Shown piece after piece: positions 10,277 through 60,418 of a stretch of 64,000 nt of DNA. Numbering within the stretch: position 1 is the first letter of the stretch; each line of letters begins with the position of its first letter. This DNA is from Thermoproteota archaeon (GTDB lineage: Archaea; Korarchaeota; Korarchaeia; Korarchaeales; Korarchaeaceae), in the NCBI GenBank assembly GCA_027492205.1, contig JAOZFN010000005.1, forward strand, positions 1 through 64,000, in the 5' to 3' direction. A program made the translations under genes and the position numbers. The notes below the pieces were generated by a model. That model searched no databases, was not told where the DNA came from, and saw nothing but the letters and a program-made list of their open reading frames with translations.

Positions 10277-10352
10277 GGGCCGGTGGTCTAGCGGCTATGA
10301 CGCCGCCTTGACGAGGCGGAGGTCGTGGGTTCGAGTCCCACCCGGCCCACCA
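10277..10352 (+). tRNA. tRNA-Val(GAC)
   Basis: Cloverleaf GGGCCGG..CCGCC-TTGACGA-GGCGG..TTCGAGT..CCGGCCC-A-CCA. Confidence 0.96.
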
Positions 10353-10681: not shown

Positions 10682-10996
10682 CTAGGGCCCTCTAGACGCT
10701 CCCATCGTCGCCTCAACGGCTTCGTTCACCACCCTCGTTAGGGCCCTAGAGAGCCGGATGGCCTCATCCTCAACGTCATCTCCCGTAGAGTGCGCGAGTT
10801 CCTTCACCCTTCTCAGAATCTCCTGCACCCTTTCCCTGTTGGCAAGAACGTAGGACGCCGCCTCTGCTACGACCAATGCCATTTCAAGGAGAGATTGCAG
10901 GTCTAAGGAGCCGGCATTCCCCAGTAGCTCTGCTCGGAGCTTTCTCTTGAATGATAGGTGGGCCCAGAGCAGGTCATCTAGACGCTGATCCCGCAT
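10682..10996 (-). CDS. Hypothetical helical protein
   Basis: 104-aa ATG ORF filling the gap, divergent from the next gene. Confidence 0.55.
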   Translation of the reverse strand: MRDQRLDDLLWAHLSFKRKLRAELLGNAGSLDLQSLLEMALVVAEAASYVLANRERVQEILRRVKELAHSTGDDVEDEAIRLSRALTRVVNEAVEATMGASRGP

Positions 10997-11075: not shown

Positions 11076-11444
11076 ATGAAGCTCCACGTCAAGCTAGTTG
11101 AGAGGAAAGAAGATCCAGTCGGTGGAGTAGCTACTCTGAGGTTCTCGGTTGAGTCCCCCGTGAAGGGAGCCCTCTCGATCGAGGTTCCACTCGGTCTTGC
11201 CCGAAGACTCTCAGAGAGATATGAGGGAGAGGCCCTTTTGCTGGAGGAGAAGCCCCCTTCCAGTGAGGGGGATCTTCTAATGAATGCTGTGGTCTACCAG
11301 TCTGACGAGAACTCCCTTCGAGCGTCCGCATACGGCCTACTAGTGATCCTGGAGCTTAAGGGTCGGGTGGCGGATCTGGCCAATTTCTCTAGGGGGGCCG
11401 AGGTCCACTTTCTGCTGAGAGACATCGTCAGCGAGAGCCCCTGA
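11076..11444 (+). CDS. Probable RNA polymerase subunit Rpo8 (RpoG/Rpb8 ortholog)
   Basis: 122 aa; DLLMNAVVYQ...ASAYGLLV resembles Rpb8 DYVMYGKVY...SFGGLLM. Confidence 0.65.
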   Translation: MKLHVKLVERKEDPVGGVATLRFSVESPVKGALSIEVPLGLARRLSERYEGEALLLEEKPPSSEGDLLMNAVVYQSDENSLRASAYGLLVILELKGRVADLANFSRGAEVHFLLRDIVSESP

Positions 11445-11450
11445 CTCGCA

Positions 11451-11502
11451 GGAAACTTTTGAGAAATTTTCCTAAATTTTTCTCCATAATTCACAATAAT
11501 AT
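11451..11502 (+). promoter_or_regulatory. AT-rich promoter with phased A/T tracts and ANTTTC motifs
   Basis: GGAAACTTTT-GAGAAATTTT-CCTAAATTTT with about 10-bp period, then AATAATATC before ATG 11521. Confidence 0.5.
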
Positions 11503-11520
11503 CCTCTCAGCTCCCTCAAC

Positions 11521-12279
11521 ATGGAGGGGGGCTTGCCTCCATCGTCCTGCGAGTGGCAGCTGTCGTCCTCCGTAGATCCCTACGGAAGTTACTCTGACCT
11601 AGCAAACCACTACCCGCTCGCTTGGAGGAGAAGAGAACACTTACCCCGGTGGCTCTCTGAGGTAGTAAGCGAGCTGGACGCACCTCCGCGACTTTTGGAC
11701 CTGGCTAAGGCGATTATCTCGGGCTTACCAAAAAGCCTCCACGGGAGAAGGAGGGGGTACCTCTACCTGGCGTCTTTGGTCGTGGCAAGCAGAATTCTCG
11801 GAACTCCGTTAACGCTGAAGACCGTTTCACAGGCTGCCGCCAGCGTGGGGCTCAGGGTAAGCCCCAAGAAACTTGCGATCATGGTGGGTGAGGTATCTTC
11901 GGCTTGCAGGTCACCTGTAATCGACAGCAGGTCGGTGAGGCAATACATATCCTCCATAGTATCCCACCTCAAGCGGGATCCCGCCCTTCAATCTATCCTG
12001 CATGACCTGTTCGGCGAACATTGGGGCGTCGCTCTTGACAGGCTCCACGTGAAGTCACTCGAGCTGCTTAAGGTGACGGGCAAGGTCACGAGGTTGGAAC
12101 TCGCCGGCAAGAGCCCGGCAGTCACGGCAGCGGCGACCGTGTGGCTCACGGCTAGGACTCTGGGATTGAGGTTCATAACACAGGAGAGGGTGGCACGCGC
12201 CGCAGGCGTGAGCTCCTCGGCGCTGAGAAAGCGGACTAAACTCCTCCTGCAGGGGTCGGAGGCGGCCAAATTTGCCTGA
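11521..12279 (+). CDS. Divergent TFB paralog (two cyclin-like repeats, no Zn ribbon)
   Basis: GRRRGYLYLASLVVASRILGTPLTL and GKSPAVTAAATVWL...ITQERVARAAGVSSSALRKR; no CxxC pairs. Confidence 0.75.
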   Translation: MEGGLPPSSCEWQLSSSVDPYGSYSDLANHYPLAWRRREHLPRWLSEVVSELDAPPRLLDLAKAIISGLPKSLHGRRRGYLYLASLVVASRILGTPLTLKTVSQAAASVGLRVSPKKLAIMVGEVSSACRSPVIDSRSVRQYISSIVSHLKRDPALQSILHDLFGEHWGVALDRLHVKSLELLKVTGKVTRLELAGKSPAVTAAATVWLTARTLGLRFITQERVARAAGVSSSALRKRTKLLLQGSEAAKFA

Positions 12280-13948
12280 GAGAGGCAAAAATATTCCGTA
12301 CCTTCTCGTGGCCCTTGTGGTGGTCAACGAGCTGCGGAAAAAGCTGGCACGCGGTGTTCAACTCTCTTGGGACCTTTCTTCCGAGACGCTGCTGTCGGTC
12401 GTGCCCATATTGCTACCCACAGCTCTAATTACCGGACTCTTGGCACTACTCGCCAGGTCTAGACTCCGCGGTCAGGAGGCGGCCCTTCATGCATACGTCC
12501 TCACACCCAAGGACTTCCGAAGTAAGGCCGAAGTGGACGTTACACTCATTCACCAGGTTCTGGAGGCAACAGGGCTAGAAGGACACCTCCTCCAGCGCTT
12601 GGGTTCATCCGGCCCGTCGGCCCCTATTCTCGCCGTAGCTGAGCACGGGGAAAAGGGGGCCATCTCAGCCAAGGCGGCCCTGTCCGCCCTTCGAAGCGTA
12701 CTTGGACGCGACCTTGAAGTTGTTGACATGGGTAGGCGGACTTGGCCTGATCTTTTGACGTATAGACGCAAGCCCGGGACTCCTTCTACCCCAAGGCTCA
12801 GGCTGCCCAGTGTCGAGGTGGGCAAGCGCTCGCCGGCAGTGCTCCTTGGGTATGATGGAGGGAGAAGGCCCGTAAGGCTGCCGGTGAATCTGATCTCTAA
12901 ACACATCCTTCTAATGGGGAGGACTGGTTCTGGAAAGTCAACCACTGCGATGGCTATATGTGAGAGACTGTGGTCTGACTACGGCATCCCGTTTTTGGTA
13001 CTGGATCACCACAACGAATACACTGGTATTGTGACGAGGTTAGGAGGATCTGTCGTCGGCGCCTCCGGTGGCCCTTCCCTGAACGTCTTCAGGGGGATCG
13101 CATCCAATCCGCAGGGGGCCGACATGTACGTAGAGGTTCTACGAGATGCCCTTAGCCTCACCCCCTCCCAGACTTTCATAGTCCACAGGTGCCTCTCAAG
13201 CGCCCTGAGGGCGAGTCTAGGCGAAGACCCAACGTTGGCCGATTTGATGGACGAGGTATCCGAATATAGGGAGAGAAGTGGGCCAGAGATGGAGAGCAAG
13301 CTGGCGCTTCTCAGGAAGCTGGAGCCTCTCGTCGAAGGAGAGGGAAGAGCCCATCTTCTGGTTGAGAGATTTCCTAACGTCAGCCAGCTGGACAGGCCAA
13401 CCTCCATACTTCTAGGGGGCGTGGAGTCCGATACGGTAAGGGACCTCCTAGTTCACGTGATCCTGAAGAGGGTCTACGACAGCGCAAAGGCGTGGGGACT
13501 CGGATCTCCGCTCCGGCAGGTGGTGCTGGTTGAAGAGGGAGAGCGCGTCCTACCCACGATCTCAGATGAGAGGGGCGCCACAGTAACTGACAAGATGCTT
13601 GGGGAACTGAGGAAGTTTGGGGTGGGCATGATGATAGTGACTCAGGCCCCCCACGCCCTCTCGAGAAGCGCCATGAGGAACTCGGCCATCAAGGTGATCC
13701 ACGCACTTGGATCCCCCAGAGATTTTCAAATCCTGAAACCCCTCCTCTCCCCCCTGAAGGATGGTGAGAACGTTCCAGCAAGCGCTATCTTCACCCTCAG
13801 ACCAGGTGAAGCCGTCGTGATCATGGAGGGCAGACCCGCTCCAGTGAGGTGTACGGTGGCTCCGCCCTCGGTCGAGGCCACACCCATAACGGATAGAGAA
13901 CTCACCATTCTCGCTCAAATGGCCCCCTCGTTTCACACGCTGGAGTGA
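12272..13948 (+). CDS. Membrane-anchored HerA/VirB4/FtsK-family ATPase (DUF87, CedB-like)
   Basis: N-terminal hydrophobic segments; HILLMGRTGSGKST, LDHHNEY, VLVEEG, ELRKFGVGMMIVTQ. Confidence 0.82.
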   Translation: MPERGKNIPYLLVALVVVNELRKKLARGVQLSWDLSSETLLSVVPILLPTALITGLLALLARSRLRGQEAALHAYVLTPKDFRSKAEVDVTLIHQVLEATGLEGHLLQRLGSSGPSAPILAVAEHGEKGAISAKAALSALRSVLGRDLEVVDMGRRTWPDLLTYRRKPGTPSTPRLRLPSVEVGKRSPAVLLGYDGGRRPVRLPVNLISKHILLMGRTGSGKSTTAMAICERLWSDYGIPFLVLDHHNEYTGIVTRLGGSVVGASGGPSLNVFRGIASNPQGADMYVEVLRDALSLTPSQTFIVHRCLSSALRASLGEDPTLADLMDEVSEYRERSGPEMESKLALLRKLEPLVEGEGRAHLLVERFPNVSQLDRPTSILLGGVESDTVRDLLVHVILKRVYDSAKAWGLGSPLRQVVLVEEGERVLPTISDERGATVTDKMLGELRKFGVGMMIVTQAPHALSRSAMRNSAIKVIHALGSPRDFQILKPLLSPLKDGENVPASAIFTLRPGEAVVIMEGRPAPVRCTVAPPSVEATPITDRELTILAQMAPSFHTLE

Positions 13949-14593: not shown

Positions 14594-14671
14594 GCTCCGG
14601 TGGTGTAGCCAGGCCAAGCATAGGGGCCTCTCGAGCCCCAGACCCGGGTTCAAATCCCGGCCGGAGCACCA
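14594..14671 (+). tRNA. tRNA-Glu(CTC)
   Basis: GCTCCGG..GGGGC-CTCTCGA-GCCCC..TTCAAAT..CCGGAGC-A-CCA. Confidence 0.96.
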
Positions 14672-15099: not shown

Positions 15100-15780
15100 T
15101 CAATCTCCCCCCACAACCGTACCCACCTTTTTTCCCTCGACAGCGTCCAGCAGGAGCCGGGGCCTCAACCCATCTAAAACGATGCATCGAATGGATGACC
15201 TTTCAAGGACCTTGATCGCGATAGGATCTAAGAGTTCGTACCCGCCTGGCTCGAACCGATGTCTCGCCACGATCTCTCTGAGACCCTCGTAGGAGACCCT
15301 CTCCAAGAGAGTGGCCCCGGGCTCGGAAGGAGGTCGATCAAATATCCCGGGCGCGCCAGTGGCCTTGACAAGCATGGAAGCGCCCACGAACTCGGATACC
15401 ACCGCCGCCACGGCATCTGTAGATTGGGCCGGGGCAATCCCCCCCAGCACGACTACGGGGCTCAATTTGAGTGCTGATACGACCTCCTCGTAGCTCTCCG
15501 GTACCGTCGGGTGGGCAATTTCGCCGAGAGCCGCCACCATGATCGAGGCGTTGAGCCTGGTAGCCAGAATCCCTATTTCATCAAGAAAGGCCTTGTTCGC
15601 CCCAAACCCCTCCGCCAGGCCTATATACCTCCTCGCAAGTCGCCCACCACCGGCGACGACGACAACACTCATTCCTCGCTTAACCAGGTTCGAAATAACG
15701 CCTCTGTACTCCTCCAGGATCGATGGGTCCTTGAGGCTCCTATCGAACACTACGCCGCCGAGCAGGAGCGTGATTATCAT
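15100..15780 (-). CDS. pyrH: Uridylate kinase
   Basis: LGG, VAGGGRLARRYI, DEIGILATRLNA, PAQSTDAVAA. Confidence 0.93.
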   Translation of the reverse strand: MIITLLLGGVVFDRSLKDPSILEEYRGVISNLVKRGMSVVVVAGGGRLARRYIGLAEGFGANKAFLDEIGILATRLNASIMVAALGEIAHPTVPESYEEVVSALKLSPVVVLGGIAPAQSTDAVAAVVSEFVGASMLVKATGAPGIFDRPPSEPGATLLERVSYEGLREIVARHRFEPGGYELLDPIAIKVLERSSIRCIVLDGLRPRLLLDAVEGKKVGTVVGGD

Positions 15781-59425: not shown

Positions 59426-60418
59426 ATGGTGGGGGATCCCTTGGAGGGTGGCCGGAAGAGCGATAAGGAGAGCCTGTTTACTGAGGTAAAGTTTACCTGT
59501 CCCCGCTGCGGGAGCGATCAGATAATCAAGGACCCGAACACTGGGGAGCTGGTCTGCGCGAGCTGTGGGTTGATTCTAAGCACGGGTATGGTTGATACGG
59601 ATAAGGACTGGAGGGCCTTCGACGCCGATGAGTACATGGATAGGGCGCACACCGGGGCCCCAGTAACCCCAACCCGATCCGGATACGGCCTAGACTCCGA
59701 CATCGCCATGACCAGCGGATTGAGCAGGAAGTCCGTTCAGACCCTCAGGAGGACCCACAGGCACGTCAGCGATGCTAGGGAAAAGGCGGTGGAGCCAGCC
59801 CTCAGGAAGATAAGACTCGCGGCCGAGACCCTGAACCTGCCTCCTGAGACCGTGGAGGACGCCGCCATGCTCTATCGGAAGGCGGCCGGTGAGGGTCTGG
59901 TGAAGGGTAGGAGCATGGACGCCATGGTGGCCGCCGTGATCTATGCGGCGTGCAGGAGGACGGACGTGCCTCGGTCGCTGGAAGAGGTCGCCTCACTCTT
60001 CAACTTGAAGGAGAAGGAGGTGGGAAGGAGCTTTCGCTTCCTGTTCAGGAAGCTGGGCATAAGGATACCGCCTCCCAAGCCGGAGAACTTCGTCTACGCA
60101 ATATGCGCCAAGCTGGGGCTGCCCGAGAGGGTGGCTACCCAGGCCATCAGGATACTGAAGATAGCCCGTCAGCAGGGGGCGACTATGGGGAGGGAGCCCG
60201 TCGGCGTCGCGGCGGCTGCCATATACATGGCCAGCCAGGAGTTCGGTGAGCACAAGACTCAGAGGGAGCTTGCTCAGGCCGCGGGCGTCACCGAGGTCAC
60301 GGTCCGAAACAGGTACAAGGAACTCCTCGCCAAGGTCCACAAGCTCTGGCTGGAGCAGCTTCCGGAGGACCTGAAGAAGCAGATGGCCTCCTTCCGCGAG
60401 TCAGCCGAGGGTCAGTAG
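59426..60418 (+). CDS. tfb: Transcription initiation factor IIB (canonical)
   Basis: CPRCG..CASCG Zn ribbon, DWRAF, GRS...AAVIYAACR, TQRELA..AGVTEVTVRNRYKEL. Confidence 0.96.
   Translation: MVGDPLEGGRKSDKESLFTEVKFTCPRCGSDQIIKDPNTGELVCASCGLILSTGMVDTDKDWRAFDADEYMDRAHTGAPVTPTRSGYGLDSDIAMTSGLSRKSVQTLRRTHRHVSDAREKAVEPALRKIRLAAETLNLPPETVEDAAMLYRKAAGEGLVKGRSMDAMVAAVIYAACRRTDVPRSLEEVASLFNLKEKEVGRSFRFLFRKLGIRIPPPKPENFVYAICAKLGLPERVATQAIRILKIARQQGATMGREPVGVAAAAIYMASQEFGEHKTQRELAQAAGVTEVTVRNRYKELLAKVHKLWLEQLPEDLKKQMASFRESAEGQ

Follow-up and report, generated by a model that had tools for sequence, protein, structure and literature searches.

A short TFB paralog gene overlapping a CedD-like ATPase gene, and the conservation of this pair among Korarchaeota

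We analysed a 64,000-nucleotide stretch of archaeal DNA (referred to here as the window; assembly GCA_027492205.1, contig JAOZFN010000005.1, positions 1 to 64,000) from a member of the Korarchaeota, in which a gene for an RNA polymerase subunit, rpo8, is followed on the same strand by two open reading frames (ORFs). The first of these, ORF A, encodes a short paralog of the general transcription factor TFB, and the second, ORF B, encodes a membrane-anchored ATPase of the HerA/VirB4 clade whose closest named family, as judged by model scores, is CedD. The two frames overlap by 8 nt on the + strand, as an earlier note made from the sequence alone had described, and the TTG start of ORF B is supported by the alignment of its opening residues with the N-termini of orthologs from the same genus. 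The pairing is retained among the relatives compared here, and the A family has shed parts of the canonical TFB. Coordinates of the genes and of their functional segments are collected in Table 1.

The affiliation of A to TFB rests on its family profile and predicted fold as well as on direct matches. Taken singly, A matches the Pfam TFIIB repeat at 26.3 bits (cutoff 23.6) over aa 194-242 only, corresponding to model positions 42-89, and single-sequence comparison with the PDB returns weak matches to TFIIB cores (E about 0.016) that cover both repeats. With a profile of 19 family members (A and 18 orthologs), human TFIIB is matched at E 1.2e-20 and the TFB core of Pyrococcus (1ais_B/1d3u_B) at E about 6e-16, and Pfam identifies the TFIIB repeat in 17 of these 19 proteins and the TFIIB Zn ribbon (Zn_Ribbon_TF) in 8. 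The AlphaFold2 model (pLDDT 80, pTM 0.68) is all-helical, with residues 1-34 disordered (pLDDT <50). In a Foldseek search with this model TFIIB/TFB cores rank first and cyclins lower, and 1ais_B/1d3u_B is matched with a target TM-score of 0.70 (rmsd about 4 Å over 210 columns), identity in the structural matches being 18-20%. By profile and by model, A is a TFB/TFIIB core composed of two cyclin repeats and a helix-turn-helix (HTH), and in effect a natural TFB core. Its recognition-helix segment SSSALRKRTKLL aligns with VADVTIRQSYRLI of TFIIB and with VTEVTVRNRYKEL of the genome's own TFB, placing an Arg of A opposite the Arg in VTIRQSY of TFIIB, which we take to be a contact to the TFIIB recognition element (BRE).

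No CxxC...CxxC motif occurs in A, and its first 60 residues contain a single Cys. The N-terminal tail evolves rapidly: 5 of the 40 N-terminal residues differ from an ortholog that is 95% identical, compared with 8 of the 212 in the remainder. The earlier note had read the protein as keeping both TFB cyclin repeats and the HTH without a Zn ribbon, and had made this depend on a cyclin fold; the fold is present in the model and its Foldseek matches, and the profile and the motif scan agree. Two other readings of A were considered and rejected. A Zn ribbon split onto the upstream ORF is not found, since that ORF is Rpo8 and has no Cys, and the spacer between them supplies none either; a pseudogene or spurious ORF is contradicted by both dN/dS and fold.

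Pfam identifies in B the DUF87/HerA central domain (E 7e-18) and HerA_C (E 2.7e-9), and NCBIfam models rank CedD (111 bits, E 6e-32) above HerA_Thermprot (48.6 bits) and CedB (18.4 bits), with VirB4-type models at 16-25 bits. The CedD score is far below the 600 bits set as equivalog cutoff for that model (NF053655). With the same model, orthologs from sister genera reach 162-175 bits, and the highest ortholog score is 182 bits. Within its genome B is the top CedD-like gene (runner-up 49.5 bits), and the genome has HerA-like genes of its own, one on contig C16 with 321 bits to HerA_Thermprot and others on C8 with 192-208 bits. These scores place B nearest to CedD and not with housekeeping HerA, CedB or VirB4. 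The likeness to CedB that had been suggested for it therefore holds as far as a membrane-anchored HerA/VirB4-like ATPase is meant, and fails as to the nearest family (111 against 18 bits), and the grouping with housekeeping HerA that would have undone the suggestion is not seen (48.6 against 321 bits).

The structural model of B (pLDDT 79.8) begins with two N-terminal helices (H8-27 and H39-67), followed by a beta-rich N-terminal domain (aa 72-204) and then the ATPase, and in fold it comes closest to HerA, the VirB4 C-domain and DndH-C. In the hydropathy profile aa 43-61 stand out as one strong segment (Kyte-Doolittle 2.34), preceded by a short hydrophobic helix (aa 7-18); orthologs usually have two hydrophobic N-terminal segments. 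Hydropathy, Pfam and fold matches are thus at one with the hydrophobic helices and HerA/VirB4 motifs previously noted in this gene. No recognisable DNA-recognition domain was found in B with Pfam. A homolog search with B gave at least 14 matches, and the name given among those listed belongs to a distant bacterial 'ATP-binding protein'; a search of genome contigs with the B alignment, in which the P-loop served as pattern, gave at least two true relatives.

Whether the pair is conserved in relatives had been raised as a question on which its significance would turn, and in each of the 26 complete loci (26/26) an A-like ORF immediately precedes, in the same orientation, a B-like one. These comprise the window and 25 relatives from seven genera (g1 to g7) and three families, up to the level of class. 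Kept out of the counts were L047, where a contig end cuts B and the pair is present; L029 and L028, which lie at a contig edge and hold a partial A; L053-L055 of family f4, without an A-like neighbour; and L061 and L062, weaker paralogs by the CedD model and likewise without an A-like neighbour. A single-protein search with A gave matches in 26 of 41 genomes including its own, some of the weaker ones being canonical TFBs, and four g3 genomes missed by this query were recovered with a family hidden Markov model. A homolog search with the A profile gave at least nine matches. Against 1.84 billion representative proteins, the A profile retrieved 17 at E <= 1e-30, of which 16 score 152-269 bits and measure 211-271 aa, the next being at 129 bits and 327 aa; this step in score and length suggests that the A family is small and discrete. 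Its named members are recorded as "hypothetical protein [Candidatus Korarchaeota archaeon]" (P0172 and P0042, from NCBI records of Korarchaeota metagenome-assembled genomes), a label that annotation as a TFB paralog would improve.

Spacing within the pair varies by genus. The frames overlap or abut in g1, g2 and g7 (-28 to +2 nt) and are separated by +28 to +139 nt in g3, g5 and g6, the range being +84 to +139 nt in all but L043; a single g4 value of -352 reflects an over-long ORF call. Values of dN/dS are 0.13-0.40 for A and 0.06-0.17 for B, indicating purifying selection on both, and this extends to A in the ribbon-less lineages (0.18-0.40). Recurrence in every complete locus, together with purifying selection on both genes, argues that the pair is more than a chance adjacency. 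No A-B fusion was found in any of the 26 loci.

The surroundings form a syntenic housekeeping block that includes a PRC-barrel gene (22/26), an AAA_18 kinase gene (24/26) and a 226-aa ORF (15100-15780 in the window; 21/26). Within the phylum, every one of 29 genomes has a match to the CedD model (E <= 1e-22). In family f4 of the same phylum, no A-like neighbour was found at three loci, two of which are at contig ends. The intact f4 locus (L053:5520-8192, genome G029) has no TFB-like neighbour and encodes a CedD-like protein of 890 aa with a C-terminal extension of roughly 240 residues, in which no Pfam domain was found at E <= 0.01; this extension may stand in, as a fusion, for the partner that is otherwise a separate protein.

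Alignment with the canonical TFBs of the same genomes places a gap of roughly 50 residues at the B-reader/B-linker in all 26 A-family rows. The gap is present in members with and without a Zn ribbon, and it recurs in comparison with human TFIIB. In addition, the A family carries about 20 extra residues between its two repeats relative to canonical TFB. The Zn ribbon motif is kept in 15 of the 26 loci and absent from 11 (five in g1, four in g3, one in g4 and one in g5). Mapped onto a maximum-likelihood tree of the B orthologs, ribbon presence or absence requires three or more changes in each bootstrap tree, and the ribbon is retained in outgroup families f2 and f3. The lack of a Zn ribbon thus appears as a repeated secondary loss: on this evidence, the ribbon is ancestral and has been lost at least three times, including in the window's genus, and the trait common to the whole A family is the loss of the B-reader/B-linker. 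The earlier characterisation of A as Zn-ribbon-less is accordingly apt for the window protein and not as a defining trait. Given these independent losses, the conserved function of A would seem not to need docking to the polymerase.

The gene upstream of A was assigned with a profile of 11 orthologs, which matches Rpb8 (3h0g_H; E 1.3e-9) as well as chains of archaeal Rpo8 (E 8.5e-8 to 1.9e-6). Pfam RNA_pol_RpbG (PF16992) matches 9 of these 11 orthologs; the window protein alone gives no Pfam match. In the loci of 22 of 25 relatives the gene immediately precedes A in the same orientation, so that an rpo8-tfbS-cedD-like array, in which tfbS stands for the short TFB paralog, is present in 23 of 26 loci when the window is included. 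Those lacking it are one locus at a contig end and two of family f2. This constancy of rpo8 ties A to the transcription apparatus.

The AT-rich spacer between rpo8 and A is probably the promoter of a leaderless A-B transcript, judging by its TATA-like sequence. It holds the words GAAACT, GAAATT and ATTTTC. Words of the form ANTTTC/GAAANT, reportedly a DNA-damage motif in Sulfolobales, occur 14 times upstream of A in 16 representative regions, compared with 7.5 +/- 2.5 after shuffling (10 of 1000 shuffles reach 14). This enrichment of about twofold, which comes mainly from genera g1 and g3, is a weak lead since related loci are not independent. As a separate observation, GAAA(N)TTTT-like words recur upstream of A in g1 and g3 (the window spacer, L037, L039, L041-L043, L056, L059 and L060).

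Table 1. Genes and segments of the rpo8-tfbS-cedD-like array in the window
Feature	Position	Strand	Basis or remark
rpo8 (rpoG/Rpb8-like RNA polymerase subunit), first gene of the array	11076..11444	+	122 aa; ortholog profile
AT-rich 76-nt spacer with TATA-like AATAATAT	11445..11520	+	TATA-like sequence about 19-26 nt before the ATG of A; read from sequence
ORF A, short TFB paralog	11521-12279	+	252 aa, ATG start; without Zn ribbon, without B-reader/B-linker
A residues 1-34, disordered fast-evolving tail replacing the Zn ribbon	11521..11622	+	pLDDT <50, no CxxC pairs
A residues about 43-128, first cyclin-like repeat	11647..11904	+	model helices H43-128; aligns with TFIIB/TFB repeat 1
A residues about 194-251, second half of cyclin repeat 2 and HTH recognition helix SSSALRKRTKLL	12100..12273	+	Pfam TFIIB repeat
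ORF B, membrane-anchored CedD-like HerA/VirB4-clade ATPase	12272-13948	+	558 aa, TTG start
B residues 7-61, N-terminal hydrophobic helices (predicted membrane anchor)	12290..12454	+	hydropathy, model helices
B residues 216-224, Walker A (GRTGSGKST)	12917..12943	+	G216, T218, G219, G221, K222, T224 invariant in 17 orthologs
B residues 416-423, Walker B region (VVLVEEGE)	13517..13540	+	E421, E422 invariant in 17 orthologs

Several smaller features accompany the locus. Opposite-strand ORFs of 50-133 aa lie inside A and B and are most likely by-products of the 57-58% GC content. An Rfam scan near the locus returned two tRNAs only (10277-10349 and 14594-14668), which border the block of PRC-barrel, rpo8, A, B and kinase genes; the former overlaps the called start of the PRC-barrel ORF (10325), the true start of which is therefore probably later. 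Despite these bordering tRNAs, a mobile island was rejected as an explanation, given ordinary GC content, no meaningful flanking repeats and class-wide synteny of the block. Between the PRC-barrel gene and rpo8 lies a 104-aa helical ORF on the - strand (10682-10996) without a family match; order-level relatives have similar small ORFs at this place, although blastp recovers the ORF in only 4 of 26 loci.

Elsewhere in the window, the canonical tfb that had been placed at 59426 is confirmed (59426-60418): its 330-aa product has a Zn ribbon and both repeats, at 83 and 71 bits. In the genome as a whole (96% complete, 17 contigs), no CedB, AAA_10 or VirB4_CagE match was found at E <= 0.001, a result that does not prove absence; the genome thus offers no case for a Ced-like system as known from Sulfolobales. 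We also observed a second short TFB paralog (G000:C9:344712-345635; L092:6713-7633), a 307-aa ORF that has a Zn ribbon and is without the B-reader/B-linker. Its neighbours, up to C9:351172, comprise a T2SSE-type secretion ATPase (56 bits), an ATPase resembling ParA/MinD and several ORFs that look like membrane proteins, an arrangement in line with the report of TFIIB homologs in type IV pilus loci of archaea (PMC4858521). A further HerA-like ATPase ORF of 900 aa (G000:C17:60571-63273) contains a long insertion after Walker A that looks like an intein from its sequence.

We hypothesize that A binds the promoter of its own operon together with the TATA-binding protein (TBP), is unable to recruit polymerase there, and so gates expression of the CedD-like pump, and we put the probability of this reading at roughly 0.45. 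Its starting points, namely gene structure, fold, domain losses, conservation and purifying selection, are results obtained above. The A family keeps the part of TFB that would engage TBP and promoter DNA, that is, the two cyclin repeats with the HTH recognition helix. A and B would be transcribed together from the TATA-like promoter of A, with B translationally coupled to A, and B may act as a membrane-anchored, presumably hexameric, DNA-translocating ATPase. Together with TBP, A might sit on the TATA/BRE of its own operon and perhaps on a few other promoters. Being unable to recruit polymerase or to open DNA, it would occupy the TFB site as a gatekeeper or repressor, setting the amount of the CedD-like pump until a signal, possibly DNA damage, displaces it. 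Binding to TBP and to DNA, repression, the pumping of DNA and the displacing signal are all inferences. Since A keeps the TBP- and DNA-binding parts without those for recruiting and opening, a promoter-bound gatekeeper is the most economical reading, and the occupancy of the cedD promoter by TFB3 reported for Sulfolobales (PMC6101594) is a precedent that we count in its favour, as is the position of tfb3 two locus tags from cedD in two Sulfolobales. The roles proposed for A in the earlier note, activator or promoter-blocking repressor, are conjectures.

Several observations weigh against this gatekeeper hypothesis. An A-B gap of 84-139 nt in g3, g5 and g6 leaves room for a second promoter, so that the pair is not co-transcribed in all genera. 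Conservation across the class exceeds what a local autorepressor would seem to need, and overlapping frames are likewise a common mark of complex-forming proteins. The one precedent that has been studied, TFB3, is reported to be an activator in need of its Zn ribbon (PMC6101594), the part that A lacks here. Furthermore, the pair sits within a housekeeping block that is conserved whole, so part of the linkage may be inherited synteny, and the searches of the genome returned neither a CedB nor a VirB4 partner for B.

Three rival explanations were considered. In one, which we consider unlikely, A is a co-activator resembling TFB3 that joins TBP and canonical TFB at damage-responsive promoters, including that of its own operon, and stimulates initiation; the korarchaeal pair would then be the ancestral, operon-linked form of the TFB3-Ced circuit of Sulfolobales. 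The activation of ced genes by TFB3 and its presence at the cedD promoter (PMC6101594) agree with such a role, as do the position of tfb3 two locus tags from cedD in two Sulfolobales, the TFIIB-type Zn ribbon retained in 15 of 26 A orthologs, and the roughly twofold enrichment of ANTTTC/GAAANT words upstream of A. However, TFB3 is reported to work through its ribbon and coiled coil without a core (PMC6101594), the reverse of A in this genus; the ribbon was lost at least three times with the gene kept; and the motif enrichment is weak (10/1000 shuffles), comes mainly from g1 and g3 and is drawn from kin loci that are not independent.

The overlap of the A and B frames in g1, g2 and g7 would also suit an A that acts outside transcription, as a cytoplasmic DNA-binding subunit of the B translocase in the manner of accessory proteins of VirD4-type coupling proteins. 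Repeated loss of the polymerase-contacting parts with the DNA-binding core kept would be expected of such a subunit, B is without a recognisable DNA-recognition domain of its own, and the intact f4 locus, without a TFB neighbour, encodes a CedD-like protein of 890 aa with a C-terminal extension. We nevertheless hold this role to be distinctly improbable, for the conserved upstream rpo8 points to RNA polymerase and not to the membrane, A evolves faster than B, the 26 loci include no A-B fusion, and no Pfam domain was found in the f4 extension at E <= 0.01. Lastly, A could work with Rpo8 and RNA polymerase in general or RNA-class-specific transcription, its adjacency to B reflecting inherited synteny and no functional connection. 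The published adjacency of rpoG and a 'TFIIIB' gene, for which functional cooperation was suggested (PMC2234397), the single predicted operon of a Thermoproteus TFIIB variant and RPB8 (PMC4858521), and synteny of the whole block across the class are all compatible with this, but A-B linkage (26/26) is at least as constant as rpo8-A linkage (23/26) and persists in f2 without a nearby rpo8, and A and B overlap or abut in three genera. The Thermoproteus variant, moreover, is also reported alongside a membrane-associated ATPase system (PMC4858521), so that the ATPase link recurs, and we give a purely Rpo8-directed role only a slim chance.

The regulation and powering of DNA exchange in archaea are known only from Sulfolobales, in which the truncated TFB3 switches on the Ced importer. 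The present locus adds a second TFB paralog, oppositely truncated, that is linked to a CedD-type ATPase and rpo8 across a deep-branching, uncultured hot-vent class of Korarchaeota, hinting that the link between a TFB copy and a DNA-exchange pump known from Sulfolobus is old and varied. It opens a testable route to asking if the TFB-Ced link is older than the divergence of Korarchaeota from Crenarchaeota. The family is also a natural experiment on the dispensable parts of TFB, with the ribbon lost three times and the B-reader/B-linker always absent, and A is a candidate natural "TFB core" competitor. More speculatively, and with little confidence, we suggest that the array may represent the ancestral form of the association of a TFB paralog with a DNA-transfer ATPase, of which TFB3 would be a differently truncated descendant. 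In the lineages without a ribbon the TFB core would then have ceased to be an initiation factor and would serve as a natural anti-TFB decoy or as the DNA-recognition subunit of a membrane DNA pump, a general transcription factor having been exapted for DNA transfer.

Comparison with known systems begins with CedD. A 2025 description makes it the second ATPase, and an essential one, of the Ced DNA importer of Sulfolobales, in which a transmembrane segment and an N-terminal domain are joined to an ATPase of the HerA/VirB4 kind (PMC11868833, PMC11823120). B resembles CedD (SiRe_1715/Saci_0667) and TedD of Thermoproteales in its membrane anchor, N-terminal domain and HerA/VirB4-like ATPase. Unlike CedD, it scores below the 600-bit cutoff, has no CedB/VirB4 partner match in its genome and is encoded alongside rpo8 and a TFB paralog, outside any ced/ted locus, so that DNA import may be proposed for B only by analogy. 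CedD is accompanied in published surveys by CedB, or by VirB4 in Thermofilales and Thermoproteales (PMC11868833); the orders that these two reports describe as surveyed exclude Korarchaeota, the label of this organism's relatives (PMC11868833, PMC11823120). No CedD match above the cutoff was found among the 221 relatives searched, nor in the phylum of genome G032.

TFB3 of Sulfolobales (Saci_0665/SiRe_1717) was reported in 2018 as a damage-induced activator of ups and ced genes (PMC6101594, PMC6101591), enriched 25-fold after damage at the promoter of cedD (herA1, SiRe_1715), and as consisting of a Zn ribbon and a C-terminal coiled coil, both essential, with no DNA-binding core (PMC6101594). 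Going by the tag numbers in the papers alone, tfb3 is two locus tags from cedD in S. acidocaldarius (Saci_0665/0667) and Sa. islandicus (SiRe_1717/1715); a term search of the main texts of PMC11868833 and PMC11823120 returned no mention of this proximity or of Korarchaeota. Like TFB3, A is a truncated TFB paralog tied to a CedD-type ATPase. The two differ in that TFB3 has the ribbon and coiled coil without a core, whereas A has the full core, here without a ribbon, and in that the A gene overlaps the ATPase gene directly. The earlier note's view of A as the reverse of TFB3 in architecture is upheld by the published description of TFB3 (PMC6101594). With the canonical TFB of the window and the TFB core 1ais/1d3u, A shares the two-repeat fold and HTH; it departs from canonical TFB in lacking the Zn ribbon, B-reader and B-linker and in the additional residues between its repeats.

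Reports on other TFIIB homologs (arCOG05559/arCOG01981) describe arrangements that partly resemble the A locus, in which a TFIIB-family gene accompanies rpoG/RPB8, an ATPase system or both (PMC2234397, PMC4858521). In 2007 a TFIIB-family gene ("TFIIIB") was reported as a common neighbour of rpoG, codirectional in a korarchaeote and divergent in most Thermoproteales, and cooperation was suggested (PMC2234397); in 2016 TFIIB homologs were reported in archaeal pilus loci, together with a predicted operon in Thermoproteus of a TFIIB variant, RPB8 and a membrane-associated ATPase system (PMC4858521). In contrast to the A locus, the ATPases in these reports are of the pilus type (T2SSE), or the downstream gene goes unmentioned, and their relevant passages describe no CedD-like partner, no missing B-reader/B-linker and no recurrent loss of the ribbon (PMC2234397, PMC4858521). 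Our literature search found no description of an operon of a TFB paralog and a CedD-like gene, in keeping with the earlier note's impression of an undescribed arrangement. Of the elements brought together here, CedD (2025), the regulatory tie of TFB3 to Ced in Sulfolobales (2018) and, in a korarchaeote, the neighbouring rpoG and "TFIIIB" genes (2007, PMC2234397) were known before. To these the present analysis adds the conservation of the A-B pair, the family-wide loss of the B-reader/B-linker, the repeated loss of the Zn ribbon and the rpo8-tfbS-cedD-like array.

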